The notes under the pieces: model-generated
What the model saw: only the letters and a program-made list of their open reading frames with translations
What the model was told of the DNA's origin: nothing
The model's database searches: none
Translations under genes and position numbers: made by a program
UHGV virus genome: UHGV-0205859
Source of the DNA: a virus
Length of the DNA: 15,795 bases
Reading direction: 5' to 3' (one strand)
Part shown: piece by piece, positions 1 through 5,205 of the stretch
Position numbering within the stretch: the first letter of the stretch is position 1
Layout: each line of letters starts with the position of its first letter

Positions 1-410
1 ACCGTGATGGTACGGGTATCTGGACCATCTGCCGTGGTGCCACAATGGTGGACGGTAAGCCTGTCGTTCCTGGCATGAAGCTGACGAAGGAAAAATGCGA
101 CCGAGTGAACGCCATCGAACGGGATAAGGCGCTGACGTGGGTGGAGAAAAACATCAAAGTGCCACTGACCGAACCGCAGAAAGCGGGCATTGCGTCATTC
201 TGTCCGTACAACATCGGGCCTTCGAAATGCTTCACCTCAACGTTTTACCGGAAACTGAACGCCGGAGACCGGAAAGGTGCATGTGCTGAAATCCGCCGGT
301 GGATATATGACGGTGGCAAAGACTGCTGTATCCGCTCAAATAATTGCTACGGTCAGGTATCCCGGCGTGACCAGGAAAGTGCGCTGGCGTGCTGGGGAAT
401 CGACAGATAA
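1..410 (+). CDS. R: Phage endolysin (lysozyme, glycoside hydrolase family 24), 5'-truncated by the window edge
   Basis: Frame 3 is open from nt 3 (RDGTGIWTICRGATMVDGKPV...) and ends at TGA 408-410. The C-terminal region (FYRKLNAGDRKGACAEIRRWIYDGGK) resembles lambdoid prophage lysozymes of the RrrD/phage 21 R type as recalled. It sits immediately upstream of Rz/Rz1. Confidence 0.85.
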   Translation, partial: RDGTGIWTICRGATMVDGKPVVPGMKLTKEKCDRVNAIERDKALTWVEKNIKVPLTEPQKAGIASFCPYNIGPSKCFTSTFYRKLNAGDRKGACAEIRRWIYDGGKDCCIRSNNCYGQVSRRDQESALACWGIDR

Positions 411-629
411 GCAGAATATTTTGCTGAAAAATGACGCCTGCTCACGCGGGCGGATAACACGAAATCCTGCGAACTGGCAAAGCGTAAGTGAATAAAAGTA
501 AAAAAACCGATTGTTAGCGCAAACGGGGTTTTGTGTTTCTGACCTTGAATAAGGCAAGGGAGAAATTATGGGTAGGGAGGTTCTTTCCCTGTGAGGAAGT
601 ATAAAAGACTCTTTCTGAGGTTGTCCATT

Positions 630-749
630 ATGAAAGGCATTGAGGTGGAGACGCCAGCAAGTCTGGATTTAACAAGAGCGGCAGCAATTGCCATTCGTAT
701 TGTGGCAATTGCTGTTCTTGTCTGGGCAATCCCGTTGGTGGTGATATGA
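630..749 (+). CDS. Hypothetical 39-aa small membrane peptide ([39 protein letters not shown]), not in the ORF track because it is under 60 aa
   Basis: ATG at 630 is preceded by GAGG at 617-620. Its stop TGA (747-749) overlaps the Rz start (ATGA at 746-749), suggesting translational coupling. Acidic N-terminus followed by a roughly 20-residue hydrophobic stretch. An alternative in-frame GTG start at 591 lies downstream of GGGAGG. Confidence 0.3.
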
Positions 750-1213
750 ATCGTGTGCTGTATGGCGTGCTTATTGTCCTGCTGCTTGGTTGTGGAGCGA
801 TGTGGCTGGCAACAAACCATTACCGTGATAACGCCATTACCTACAAAGCGCAGCGCGATAACAAAGCCAGTGAACTGGAGAAAGCGAATGCAACCATTAC
901 TGACATGCAGCAGCGCCAGCGTGATGTTGCTGCACTCGATGCAAAATATACAAAGGAGTTAGCCGATGCAAAAGCTGAAAATGAAAATCTGCGCGCTGAT
1001 GTTGCCGCTGGCCGCCGCAGCCTGCGGGTCAACGCCACCTGTGTGCCCGCCACAGATAAAACCACCGGCACCACCCGCATGGGTAATGCAACCCGTCCCC
1101 GACTGGCAGACGCCGCTCAACGGAATTATTTCACCCTCAGAGAGCGACTGATGACGATGCAGAAACAACTGGAAGGGGCACAGCTCTACATCAGTGAGCA
1201 ATGCCTCAGATAA
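746..1213 (+). CDS. Rz: Rz i-spanin (inner-membrane spanin subunit)
   Basis: 155 aa with an N-terminal transmembrane segment and a coiled-coil periplasmic domain. The [19 protein letters not shown] and [20 protein letters not shown] motifs match lambda Rz as recalled. Confidence 0.9.
966..1151 (+). CDS. Rz1: Rz1 o-spanin (outer-membrane lipoprotein), nested in the +1 frame inside Rz
   Basis: 61-aa ORF wholly inside Rz in another frame. It has a signal peptide with a lipobox-like LAAAACGS and a proline-rich mature region ([27 protein letters not shown]) closely matching lambda Rz1 as recalled. Confidence 0.85.
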
Positions 1214-2229
1214 AAACCGGTAAGGGATAATCCGCTTAAGATTTACCGGTGGCGAAGAGAGCCAAGGCATCAAATTACGCGATTACCTGTAGCAGTACAA
1301 TATATGGTTTACGTTTTCTTATTAATTCCAGATGTATGCCTGTGCGCCGTATCGTCGCCGTATTCCTGCATTAACAGAGACCGCAGCCCTTGCGGGATAC
1401 TCCTCTGCGCGAGTGTGCGGGTATAATCAAAAACGATGCACACCGGGTTTTGCTGCGAGAACTGAACGGGGCGCGTATTGTATCCTCATAATTGCCCGCC
1501 CAGTGCGATGGTGGAAGAAACCGGAATGATGAATTGTGAATGCAAAATATGGTTCTGCATTGAATAATACAGGCATTGTTTCCTGTTTACATCCAGAACA
1601 TATTTAAATATGCCTGCCTGGGACAGAGTAAAGTGGCTACGGAAAAAAGGTATGCTTCCGGATAAATGTTTTTTGATAACCAGTTTTGTCCAGATATTGT
1701 TTGATCTGTGGTTTATATAAACAGGTCTTTTTTTGGTCTGTACCGTGATCATACTATGGTTATGTGTGGTAAAGCGTATATTCCCTGTAGACAGGAAATA
1801 AAAACAATGCGAGATATCATTTTTTTTTAAGATAGTCAGTGACGGAAATAATATCGCTATTGTGTGATGAAATAAGCAAGGATATAACAGAGCTAAGCCG
1901 GTTGTTCTCTGTGGGGACACAATCTGGTGGCGATAAATCAGAATGCGTGATGTAAAGATTAAGCATGTAAAACCATGGTGTTTAACTGAAGGTTACTGTG
2001 CGGCGGGAAAATAATGAAGTGAAAAGCTAATGTCTATTTGTTATTTTCGCATGATAAAGCAGAGGTATTATTTTTTTGCTAATTTATTCTTTTGATATGT
2101 CTTATCTGTATTTGTGGTTGGTTGTAAACCTCTATTGCAACTGACATCGTCAGCAATGTTGCATACTCATTCAGGTGCAACATGGCGTGGAAGAAAGAAT
2201 ACAGGTATGAGGATATTTGAGTGGATGAT

Positions 2230-2256
2230 AAAAAAAAGCCGCAGGTGGTATGCGGC
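2230..2256 (-). terminator. Candidate rho-independent terminator on the minus strand
   Basis: Plus strand reads A8 (2230-2237) then GCCGCA (2238-2243), a 7-nt loop, and TGCGGC (2251-2256). On the minus strand this is a perfect 6-bp GC-rich stem followed by eight T residues. Confidence 0.5.
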
Positions 2257-2375
2257 ATGAAATGGCACGAATCAGTGGATATATCTTTTTTCGTTTGTAT
2301 TTTTATCTTATTTCCAGAGGTGTAATCAATTCGAAAAATACGTGAGAACAGAGCGTATATTTTCGACCTTTTTAT

Positions 2376-2432
2376 GGGTCCTCCTGGTGGGGTCGGCCTG
2401 TCCACGGGGCGGGTCGGCGCGGAAAAAGGCGC
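2376..2432. other. Candidate cos region (cosN-like GC-rich block) for cohesive-end packaging
   Basis: A sharply GC-rich island inside AT-rich DNA, about 190 bp upstream of the terminase small-subunit start, matching lambda's cosN-to-Nu1 spacing. ACGGGGCGGGTCGGCGCGG (2404-2422) resembles the lambda cos sequence ACGGGGCGGCGACCTCGCGGG as recalled. A second GGGGCGGC occurs at 2542-2549. Confidence 0.4.
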
Positions 2433-2608
2433 ATTTTTGTGATTTTATCGCCATCATCATCATGTCTGTAACTTATTGTTTTAAATTGTTTTGATGCAAA
2501 AAAGATGATGAATGTGGTTGATTTTTGTTCGACATCTTTGTGGGGCGGCATTTCTTTACAAAAAAACAGAGTCACTTCTGTTTTGCGGGTTACGTGGAGG
2601 ACGTGTAA

Positions 2609-3085: not shown

Positions 3086-5205
3086 ATCCGGTTAACGAGT
3101 GCCATAGCCGCGCATCCGATATCTGGCGCGAAGTGGCCTCGCTGTTTCGCCCACCCAGCCGGTTACCTGTGGTGGAAGCCATCAGGCGTTATATGCGGGT
3201 ACCACGGGGAGCCAATACATCCGGTCCGTGGGAGTCATCGCTGACGCCCTATATGATAGACCCCATTAATACATTATCAGCCCGTGAATATGACGCGGTG
3301 GTGTTTGTCGGACCTGCGCGAACGGGCAAAACCGAGGGGCTGATTGACGGCTGGATTGTGTACGGCATCATCTGTGATCCGGCTGACATGCTGGTGGTGC
3401 AGATGACTGAGACGAAGGCGCGTGAGCATTCCAGAACGCGTCTTTCCAGGACGTTTCGCCACAGTCCGGAGGTCAGTAAGCGCCTCAGTCCTTCCCGTAA
3501 CGACAACAACGTCCACGACAAAATGTTTCTTGACGGCTCATTCCTGAAAATTGGCTGGCCGTCGATCACCGTATTTTCCTCCTCGGATTACCGTCGTGTG
3601 GCGCTGACGGATTATGACCGTTTCCCTGAAAACGTGGACGGGGAAGGGGATGCCTTCACCCTGGCCTCAAAGCGTACCACCACCTTTATGTCCTCCGGGA
3701 TGACCCTGGTTGAGAGTTCACCGGGGCGGGATATTACTGACACCAAATGGCGTTGTGGTGGCGCACATGAGGCACCGCCAACAACGGGGATCATGTCACT
3801 GTATAACCGGGGAGACCGCCGCCGGTGGTACTGGCCGTGTCCGCACTGCGGGGAATATTTTCAGCCGGTGATGGATAACATGACCGGTTACCGGAATAAC
3901 CCCGATTTTGTGGCTGCCGGTCAGGCTGCCCGTCTGATGTGTCCACACTGTCGCGGGCTGATTGCCCCGGAGCAGAAACGCGAACTGAATAACATGGGGA
4001 TCTGGCTGCGGGAAGGTGAGCGGGCGGCGGCGGATGGCAGTATCACTGGAACGCCACGAAATTCCAGGATAGCGAGCTTCTGGCTGGAGGGGCCAGCTGC
4101 CGCGTTTCAGACCTGGGAACAACTGATTTTTAAGCTGCTGTCGGCAGAAGAAGAATATGAGCGAACCGGCAGTGAAGAGACCCTGAAAGCGGTGGTGAAC
4201 ACCGATATCGGACGGCCTTATCTGCCCCGTTCAGCCACGGAACAGCGCAAAAGTGAGCTGCTTGAACAGCGTGCGGAGCCGGTTCCACTGCGATGTGTGC
4301 CGGATGGCGTGCGCTTCATTGAGGCAACGGTTGACGTACAGGGCGGTAAAAACAGCCGTTTTGTGGTGCAGATCACCGGATACGGAGAGCAGGGAGAACG
4401 CTGGATTGTTGATCGCTACAACATCCGGCATTCACTGCGCAGCAGCCCCAACGGTGAAAGCCTGCCGGTTGATCCGGCTGCGTATCCGGAAGACTGGACG
4501 TTGTTGCTGACGGATGTCTTCCATAAAACCTGGCCGCTGGCTTCCGATCCGGATGTTCGTATGCGTCTTATGGCGATGGCCGTGGATACGGGCGGTGAAG
4601 CAGGGGTGACGGATAATGCCTATCGTTTCTGGCGGCAGTGCCGCCGTGACGGACTGGGTAACCGGGTGTTTCTGTTCAAGGGCGATGGCCTGCGTCGCGA
4701 CAGACTGATTAACCGTACCTTCCCGGATAACACCGGCAGAAGTGCCCGCCGTGCCAGGGCCAGTGGTGATGTTGCCCTGTGGCTGGTGCAGACCGATGCG
4801 TTTAAGGATCGGGTGAATAATGCGCTGTGGCGTGACACGCCGGGACCGAATTATATCCACTTTCCTGACTGGCTGGGGCGGTGGTTTTTCGATGAGCTGA
4901 CCTATGAGGAGCGCGGCAGTGACGGAAAATGGCGAAAGCCGGGCAGGGGCGCTAACGAAGCATTTGACCTGCTGGTCTACGCGGATGCGCTTGCCGTTCT
5001 GCATGGCTACGAAAAGATCCGCTGGCCGTCAGCACCTGACTGGGCACAACGGGAAACGTGGCTTGTCGGTCCGGAGGGGCGTTCAGATGCGACAACGCCC
5101 ACGGCGTCGTCAGGAAGGAAAGAAAAATGCCGTCACCGGCAGGAAAAACTGCGCACAGAGCGGGCAGAGGATAATCCGTGGGTAACATCAGGAGGCTGGT
5201 TGTGA
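3082..5205 (+). CDS. A: Terminase large subunit, lambda GpA family
   Basis: 707 aa with GTG start overlapping the small-subunit stop. Walker A motif GPARTGKT (aa 77-84). Size and position are typical of GpA-type terminases of cos phages. Confidence 0.9.
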   Translation: MNPVNECHSRASDIWREVASLFRPPSRLPVVEAIRRYMRVPRGANTSGPWESSLTPYMIDPINTLSAREYDAVVFVGPARTGKTEGLIDGWIVYGIICDPADMLVVQMTETKAREHSRTRLSRTFRHSPEVSKRLSPSRNDNNVHDKMFLDGSFLKIGWPSITVFSSSDYRRVALTDYDRFPENVDGEGDAFTLASKRTTTFMSSGMTLVESSPGRDITDTKWRCGGAHEAPPTTGIMSLYNRGDRRRWYWPCPHCGEYFQPVMDNMTGYRNNPDFVAAGQAARLMCPHCRGLIAPEQKRELNNMGIWLREGERAAADGSITGTPRNSRIASFWLEGPAAAFQTWEQLIFKLLSAEEEYERTGSEETLKAVVNTDIGRPYLPRSATEQRKSELLEQRAEPVPLRCVPDGVRFIEATVDVQGGKNSRFVVQITGYGEQGERWIVDRYNIRHSLRSSPNGESLPVDPAAYPEDWTLLLTDVFHKTWPLASDPDVRMRLMAMAVDTGGEAGVTDNAYRFWRQCRRDGLGNRVFLFKGDGLRRDRLINRTFPDNTGRSARRARASGDVALWLVQTDAFKDRVNNALWRDTPGPNYIHFPDWLGRWFFDELTYEERGSDGKWRKPGRGANEAFDLLVYADALAVLHGYEKIRWPSAPDWAQRETWLVGPEGRSDATTPTASSGRKEKCRHRQEKLRTERAEDNPWVTSGGWL

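Follow-up and report, generated by a model that had tools for sequence, protein, structure and literature searches.

What occupies the gap between the endolysin gene and the Rz gene of phage genome UHGV-0205859? We analyzed a 15,795-nucleotide (nt) stretch of this genome (the window), in which the two genes lie 335 nt apart (411–745) and the gap contains a small open reading frame (ORF). This ORF is the phage's copy of a conserved gene for a single-pass membrane protein, PHROG 4493. Judged by its substitution pattern, the peptide is under strong purifying selection, and we hold with moderate confidence that it functions as a late-expressed inner-membrane lysis accessory factor. The initial annotation had correctly described an ORF of 39 codons at 630–749 with a GAGG (at 617–620, 9 nt before the ATG), an ATGA overlap with the Rz start (TGA 747–749 over ATG 746–748), and a C-terminal transmembrane (TM)-like segment, which we place at residues 17–39, the hydrophobic C-terminal two thirds. 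It had missed the upstream terminator, a second start at GTG 591, an upstream ORF (uORF) of eight codons, and the frameshifted state of this copy. The elements of the small gene, with their Shine–Dalgarno (SD) motifs, are the following:

499–540, unstranded: A-tract, GC hairpin, and T-tract, terminator-like and bidirectional, forming the left end of the module.
568–594, plus strand: uORF of 8 codons (MGREVLSL, then stop) with a strong SD, AAGGGAG, at 556–562; its TGA overlaps GTG 591.
591–749, plus strand: long frame from an in-frame GTG, 52 amino acids (canonical form, 50), with SD GGAGG at 576–580, 10 nt upstream.
617–620, plus strand: GAGG, the SD of the ATG start; it also supplies an invariant AGG arginine codon of the long frame.
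630–749, plus strand: small ORF, ATG at 630, 39 codons plus stop; a frameshifted allele of a 37-amino acid family protein.
731–733, plus strand: CCC run, one C longer than in the canonical ATCCGT, from alignment with FORC_069 and phage GER2.

Is the encoded peptide itself under selection? Length says little: the first 2.5 kb of the window holds 50 ORFs of at least 20 amino acids, and because a length of 39 codons is common by chance, the significance of the small ORF rests wholly on comparative data. We compared 42 distinct haplotypes of the region, drawn from IMG/VR, GenBank phages, and genome assemblies. Third codon positions were variable in 30 of 37 codons, compared with 12 first and 8 second positions (20/74 together; Fisher p = 7e-8), which is the synonymous-biased pattern that the initial annotation had proposed as a check. 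Among the Escherichia coli lineages, the Nei–Gojobori ratio of nonsynonymous to synonymous substitution (dN/dS) was 0.03–0.10 at a dS of 0.5–2.2 (1.1–2.2 except in one pair); the main lineages differ at ∼60–70% of synonymous sites but by only 3–6 conservative changes in the protein. The other two frames have dN/dS > 1 and contain stop codons. A fortuitous ORF in inserted DNA, which the initial annotation had considered equally plausible, is rejected because dN/dS is low, synonymous sites are near saturation, and the signal is specific to this frame. The constraint persists in loci where a gene for a 60-amino acid lipoprotein lies downstream and in one lineage (L095) in which the gene lies at a prophage end.

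To which family does the peptide belong, and how widespread is it? The PHROG 4493 profile matches it at E = 2.4e-13 in the 39-amino acid form and at 2e-21 in the 52-amino acid form, with weaker matches to PHROG 1115 and 3246; all three are annotated as “unknown function.” Searches of Pfam, NCBIfam, and PADLOC with the peptide gave no match. The canonical protein has 37 amino acids from the ATG and 50 from the in-frame GTG, and the Prokaryotic Genome Annotation Pipeline lists it as a hypothetical protein of 37 amino acids (WP_000675931.1). Composition and a structural model agree in predicting that the peptide is membrane-embedded: AlphaFold places helices at residues 3–18 and 23–49, separated by a break at ETPA, with a local confidence score (pLDDT) of 91 in the TM part. 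Distant homologues (MKGIDVEAPASERLINVASFAILLVTVAVLIWVVKWW, MTGLEINVPAEDRLINATVFAVRLIAIAAFIWAIKWW, and a protein of Pantoea stewartii) are 31–51% identical to one another and keep a net-acidic N-tail with E-x-P, an alanine-rich TM helix, and a C-terminal [RK]WW.

The spacer and its ORF occur in 669 of 5426 complete E. coli genomes (≥80% query coverage) at 90–94% identity, and carriers include O104:H4 outbreak strains and phage GER2. The initial annotation called such a spacer noncanonical. That holds relative to the K-12 prophages DLP12 and Qin, which lack the element and have the classical overlapping arrangement, but not for Stx (Shiga toxin)-type lambdoid prophages, where the spacer is frequent. 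The family is known from E. coli/Shigella, Pantoea, and metagenome-assembled contigs, and in the latter two distant homologues hold the same position. Intact forms are found on many contigs (at least 999 for P0009 and 505 for P0014) and frameshifted forms on 1–8. A scan of the GTDB species-representative genomes with the exact pattern of the conserved leader returned 0 matches, and tblastn of the peptide against phages returned two records only, its hydrophobic part perhaps having been masked as low-complexity. In one further form (P0057, 43 contigs; L097:3001–3186) the SD and ATG have apparently been deleted between two GTATA repeats, probably leaving a pseudogene of the small ORF.

Where does translation of the small gene start? 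We examined the window, L001, L087, L091, L095, L004, L178, L177, and the Pantoea lineages L179 and L180. Every one of them has an alternative in-frame start 11–13 codons 5' of the ATG, a GTG (TTG in L095), with its own SD-like motif 6–10 nt upstream. The extension that it adds is strongly basic: VRKYKRLFLRLSI in the window has a net charge of +5, and the consensus, V[GRKN][KQ]Y[KI][RK][FIL][FL]LRL[ST][IV], carries +4 or +5. Between distant lineages, the extension differs by in-frame 3-nt indels and by synonymous or conservative changes, and in L177 and Pantoea a stop codon immediately precedes the GTG; together, these features form the pattern of coding sequence. The downstream start is equally well preserved. 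Its ATG is invariant, its GAGG lies 9 nt away in all lineages (6 nt in Pantoea), and the arginine whose codon forms that SD is always encoded by the rare AGG, whereas the other arginine codons of the gene vary freely. Third positions are variable in only 4 of 13 codons of the extension, whereas the main ORF has 30 variable third positions among its 37 (p = 0.002). Such low synonymous variation would fit two overlapping constraints, coding and a ribosome-binding site for the internal start. Near-invariance had also suggested a noncoding extension, which we dropped given the in-frame indels, the synonymous changes, and the conserved GTG with its SD. The dual-start anatomy thus suggests two products, a 50-amino acid form with a basic N-terminal helix and a 37-amino acid form with a net-acidic N-tail.

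The leader contains a third reading frame of narrower distribution. The 8-codon uORF is present only in type A (window-type) lineages, is truncated in the L066 type, and is absent in L091; we rejected it as a conserved element, as its peptide is unconserved and some lineages have no ORF there at all. In the window-type arrangement, it nevertheless gives a chain of coupled reading frames, from the uORF through the GTG 591 frame to Rz.

How typical is the copy in the window? Its extra C at 731–733 turns IRWW-stop into IPLVVI-stop, replacing RWW by PLVVI, and accounts for both the ATGA overlap with Rz and the 39-amino acid length, which are peculiar to this allele. The usual ending, a C-terminal [RK]WW whose stop is separated from the next start by 1 nt, is thus missing here; all other lineages end in [RK]WW, apart from a few rare alleles in which apparently independent frameshifts have given the same PLVVI end. 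A second departure from the PHROG 4493 family is at position 20, where the window reads AIAIR with Ile and the family motif is AFAI[RK], Phe being nearly invariant (≥90%). The exact window peptide was found on only 8 contigs in public data, one of them named “MAG TPA Caudoviricetes.” With RWW lost, F20I, and a weaker terminator, the window allele may be a hypomorph or a decaying copy.

What follows the small gene? At the canonical junction, TGG TGG TGA N ATG, a single nucleotide separates the stop from the Rz ATG, and this arrangement, TGGTGGTGA-N-ATG, has been conserved. Rz-type i-spanin genes follow at this 1-nt distance in the window type, in the types with M15 and GH108 endolysins, and in the distant homologue L178, which comes from a phage whose tail module is of the baseplate type. 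The gene coupled to the small ORF in Pantoea L179 specifies a protein of 128 amino acids that has a TM segment at its N terminus and is weakly similar to Rz. The small peptide is far more conserved than its neighbor: lineages that agree at 31 of its 37 residues have Rz proteins of 47% identity. Elsewhere the neighbor is replaced altogether: in phiSTEC1575-Stx2k (L004:1655–1837), a gene for a 60-amino acid lipoprotein (phrog_7528, lipobox LLVGC) stands in the place of Rz.

Upstream, similarity among carriers begins abruptly at the A-tract and, on the right, ends a few codons into the next gene. The unit so delimited consists of the A-tract, a terminator hairpin, a leader of ∼95 nt, and the ORF. 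By sequence comparison, it is a portable module, found downstream of endolysin genes of three unrelated kinds: a T4/P21-type lysozyme, accompanied by a class II holin (window and L001), an M15 peptidase with Phage_holin_8 and holin_3_7 (L087–90), and a GH108 muramidase with the same two holins (L091–94). In phiSTEC1575-Stx2k and ∼75 IMG/VR loci, it follows a gene for a 94-amino acid hypothetical protein, and in L095 it follows tail-fibre and lipase genes at a prophage end. A homologous hairpin is found behind these unrelated upstream genes, and its pairs are retained across lineages, partly by compensatory changes. It looks bidirectional, because A- and T-tracts flank it on both sides, although the L178 hairpin has a U-tract in the antisense direction only. 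The window has the full anatomy (A-tract and hairpin, two-start leader, position 5' of Rz), with a weakened hairpin: two G-C pairs are broken, and the fold z-score on the minus strand is −1.5 vs. −3.2 to −4.9 in other copies. The terminator insulates the small gene from upstream, and neither a promoter scan nor inspection revealed a recognizable sense sigma-70 promoter between terminator and ORF. A sense-strand hairpin at −36 to −14 was dropped as a defining element; its pairing is preserved through G-U pairs within E. coli but is not retained in L177 or Pantoea.

Does the interval between R and Rz hold comparable genes in other phages? In 41 phage records, the corresponding place is taken by a nonhomologous small ORF, phrog_6632, which is mostly unannotated; the majority of these records are Stx-converting phages, among them H-19B (AF034975), CP-1639, and TL-2011c. 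A representative is found in the Stx2a phage Stx2_95:

L181:2390–2527: phrog_6632 ORF, 45 amino acids, reading VFDFSKLIREIRV and then MAEKLSTWKFILIWLVFVIMASGYFIGQIRWW, followed by the stop.

In this ORF, a GTG preceded by an SD opens an extension of 13 codons, after which comes an internal ATG that likewise has an SD; the product has one TM helix, and the end reads IRWW-TGA-N-ATG(Rz). Its anatomy is that of the window gene, without detectable homology, and the Stx-converting phages that carry it share only the left part of the spacer. The R–Rz interval of Stx/lambdoid phages, in which a spacer is common, is a niche for small membrane-protein genes.

A more elaborate array is seen in PhiR5_1 (L005:1114–1560; also L006), where four tandem small TM ORFs of 31, 43, 38, and (unannotated) 28–33 amino acids lie between an antirepressor-like gene and Rz, with stops and starts 1–4 nt apart or overlapping (GTGA). 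The 38-amino acid ORF is related to the window peptide and matches PHROG 1115 strongly, and the 28–33-amino acid ORF, which abuts Rz, is a chimera of the form AFAIR...RWW.

What might the protein do? The idea of a lysis accessory factor was raised in the initial annotation, and position, coupling, and dual start fit it; its more specific suggestions of a holin/antiholin-like or spanin-modulating peptide found no match to a holin, antiholin, or spanin family, and the gene persists where no Rz is recognizable. We favor the general form of the idea for three reasons: the constant position between endolysin and i-spanin genes, the stop–start coupling, and a conserved dual-start anatomy that recalls holin/antiholin pairs. 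Because no sense promoter is recognizable between terminator and ORF, we infer that the gene would be transcribed only when Q-antiterminated late transcription reads through the terminator. Ribosomes ending at its stop would then reinitiate on Rz. The short form would probably adopt an N-out/C-in orientation, with the acidic N-tail in the periplasm, the TM helix crossing the inner membrane, and [RK]WW at the cytoplasmic face, as expected from the positive-inside rule, whereas in the long form the 13-residue extension of +4/+5 would hold the N terminus in the cytoplasm. If the parallel with holin/antiholin pairs holds, the existence of two forms could tie an activity in the inner membrane to membrane energization, which changes at holin triggering, and the protein would act as an accessory factor at the stage of envelope disruption.

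A more specific version of this mechanism, which we regard as speculative and rather unlikely, is a single-pass device whose two isoforms sense de-energization and gate or assist disruption of the outer membrane. It would work with Rz/Rz1 or, in spanin-less Stx2k-type phages, with the coupled phrog_7528 lipoprotein as a minimal spanin substitute, and would constitute a new class of Gram-negative phage lysis protein.

Several observations weigh against this reading. There is no characterized homologue or family match in Pfam, NCBIfam, PADLOC, or Rfam from which a function could be taken. In ∼75 of 80 IMG/VR loci and in phiSTEC1575-Stx2k, the downstream gene encodes the 60-amino acid lipoprotein and no spanin is annotated; the peptide remains constrained in these loci, evidence against a strict need for Rz. 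The L095 module stands at a prophage end, away from any lysis genes and with no coupled gene following. The lambda-like cassettes of DLP12 and Qin do without the gene, so that it is dispensable for Rz function. Part of the conservation of the C-terminal RWW might be owed to the Rz translation-initiation region (GGTGGTGA) and not to a need of the protein, and the activity of the window allele is uncertain without it. Finally, only one of the two forms, from the GTG or from the ATG, may in fact be made.

The strongest rival is that the gene is moron-type cargo that serves some purpose other than lysis, for example excluding superinfecting phages or modulating a membrane protein of the host, and is carried at a tolerated insertion site, its coupling to Rz being selected only to keep Rz expressed. 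We consider this possible but on balance unlikely. The module moves between unrelated contexts bounded by a terminator, and the gene persists without Rz in the type B loci and phiSTEC1575-Stx2k. It also stands at a prophage end beside a distant paralogue in L095, the same interval holds an antirepressor-like gene and tandem small TM ORFs in PhiR5_1, and intact copies are retained in very many prophages. However, the usual promoter–gene–terminator anatomy is not what we found: no sense sigma-70 promoter is recognizable between terminator and ORF, the terminator lies upstream of the gene, and the ORF runs into Rz. Moreover, homologues with as little as 31% identity, in a different type of phage (L178, L179), still lie directly before an Rz-type gene. 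The L095 paralogue, a 59-amino acid protein (…VKIETPATKDTGRAVNLVLLALAATIVMYG…; 3187–3366), is encoded 72 nt downstream of the small gene, and the pair adjoins host sugar-transporter genes.

Could the peptide instead be a membrane toxin, with translation of leader, uORF, and peptide repressed in lysogens by a cis-antisense small RNA (sRNA) of ∼90 nt, as in a type I toxin–antitoxin system? A putative promoter for such an RNA lies on the minus strand of the conserved leader (window 627 to 598, TGGACA-18-TATACT), with the bidirectional terminator as the sRNA end. The promoter-like match scores 10/12, and neither hexamer varies among all the E. coli haplotypes or in L178, the −10 element being TATAAT in L177. 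The hairpin always has the upstream A-tract (with the U-tract of L178 in the antisense direction only), the leader is more conserved than the synonymous sites of the ORF, and the predicted RNA would cover the SDs of the uORF and the GTG start. We nonetheless judge this explanation improbable. Matches this good are expected by chance (4 found in 2.5 kb vs. 4.7 expected), Pantoea does not share the −35 element, and the conservation of the leader is at least partly explained by the coding extension and the second SD. The same terminator also precedes an unrelated Stx-phage allele that lacks this leader, no toxin promoter was found, and the TM helix is C-terminal, unlike that of most type I toxins. 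Rfam, Sok included, gave nothing credible, either at the gathering threshold on the whole window or at permissive E-values on 380–800. Known prophage sRNAs (AgvB/AsxR, PasA–D) were also set aside, because they map elsewhere, to the pR'/stx moron site or to the region preceding the holin gene.

That the frame is fortuitous or a mere coupling spacer, delivering ribosomes to Rz with an irrelevant peptide, draws on the chance frequency of ORFs of this length, the constancy of the stop–start coupling to Rz (the most constant feature), and the changed C terminus tolerated in the window allele; it is scarcely credible against a dN/dS of 0.03–0.10 with saturated synonymous sites and conservative replacements, the conservation of ExP, AFAIR, and [RK]WW in homologues at 31–51% identity, and that of the ORF in L095, where no coupled gene follows.

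The surroundings of the small gene in the window are the following:

1–410, plus strand: 3' part of the endolysin gene, a T4/P21-type lysozyme (Pfam PF00959 Phage_lysozyme, 9e-23).
411–497, unstranded: endolysin 3' flank, part of the endolysin segment and outside the small-gene module.
746–1213, plus strand: Rz i-spanin gene (PF03245, 1.7e-46).
966–1151, plus strand: Rz1 o-spanin gene, embedded within Rz (PF06085, 1.8e-19).

Full-length genes homologous to the window endolysin, of 177 amino acids, are present in L001 and L181, the latter with an N-terminal segment resembling a signal-anchor-release (SAR) sequence. The initial annotation gave the length of the spacer correctly; its AT-richness is only moderate, with a GC content of 0.45 vs. 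0.54 in the flanking genes. Window positions 380–565 (query positions to 185–186) are matched by ∼300 phage records, and the similarity of PhiR5_1 to the spacer stops near window position 497. The 87-nt segment that follows the endolysin stop (411–497) is ∼88–90% conserved in ∼300 Stx/lambdoid phage records and travels with the endolysin gene. An E. coli Stx-phage allele of the R–Rz spacer has 85% identity to Actinobacillus phage vB_Apl-pPE4 (PP818812, 37890–38070), an unexpected host. Beyond Rz, window positions 1214–2600 have a GC content of 0.40 and minus-strand genes: the ORF at 1486–1920 (minus strand) encodes a DUF1398 protein, YbcV/YdfO-like (8e-21), and the ORF at 2079–2405 (minus strand) had no match in a Pfam search. 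The terminase genes, a DUF1441 small subunit and a GpA large subunit, follow from 2609 on.

Has this gene been described before? In open-access full text, we found no paper describing a small gene between R and Rz, and a review presents the lysis cassettes of Stx/lambdoid phages as S, R, and Rz (PMC8065619). A large fraction of these cassettes, however, carry an additional, strongly constrained gene for a small membrane protein between R and Rz. Small membrane proteins of phage lysis cassettes are a known kind; the family to which this one belongs is not characterized in the literature that we found, and the window copy is an atypical member. Small ORFs of late operons are readily missed or assigned wrong starts: this same gene has been called at 37, 50, and 57 amino acids and is often left unannotated or labeled “hypothetical.” Because the timing and completeness of lysis govern Shiga-toxin release, a new cassette component would be testable in inducible lysogens of Shiga toxin-producing E. 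coli (O104:H4 prophages, GER2, H-19B).

How does the gene compare with known systems? It resembles hok/mok/sok in that the peptide is small and hydrophobic, that a uORF with a strong SD precedes it, and that the leader may contain an antisense promoter followed by a terminator, but it has no toxin promoter, no match to Sok or any other Rfam family, no conservation of the uORF, and a TM helix that is C-terminal. With the Rz/Rz1 spanins, it shares location: it adjoins Rz and would be translationally coupled to it, located in the envelope, and co-expressed with it late. At 37–52 amino acids, however, the protein has neither a coiled coil nor a lipobox and cannot span the periplasm, so that it does not qualify as a spanin; its TM helix is C-terminal (a reversed topology), with a possible periplasmic N-tail of ∼16–19 residues.

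Accessory membrane proteins encoded beside endolysin and spanin genes, and non-essential, are known in P2 (LysA) and in Mu (gp25, the “releasin”). The small gene lies in the same endolysin/spanin part of the lysis cassette but has no sequence similarity to either; LysA has four TM segments, and releasin acts on SAR endolysins, whereas the small gene also accompanies M15 and GH108 endolysins.

The dual-start holin/antiholin pairs of lambdoid phages, lambda S107/S105 and phage 21 S21-71/S21-68, offer a further comparison. Here, the differences are clear. Holins have two or three TM helices and the small protein a single C-terminal one; holin pairs differ by 2–3 residues and a charge of +1, and the extension described here comprises 13 residues and +4/+5; and the holin gene precedes the endolysin gene, whereas the small gene follows it, beside the spanin gene. 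Neither Pfam nor PHROGs yields a holin family that matches the protein, and the cassettes that carry it already have holins of their own. Yet a likeness is apparent in the sequence: in each case, the gene for a small membrane protein of the lysis cassette has two in-frame starts, each with its own ribosome-binding signal, and the longer product, putative for the gene described here, is the more positive at its N terminus, which should oppose translocation of that end.

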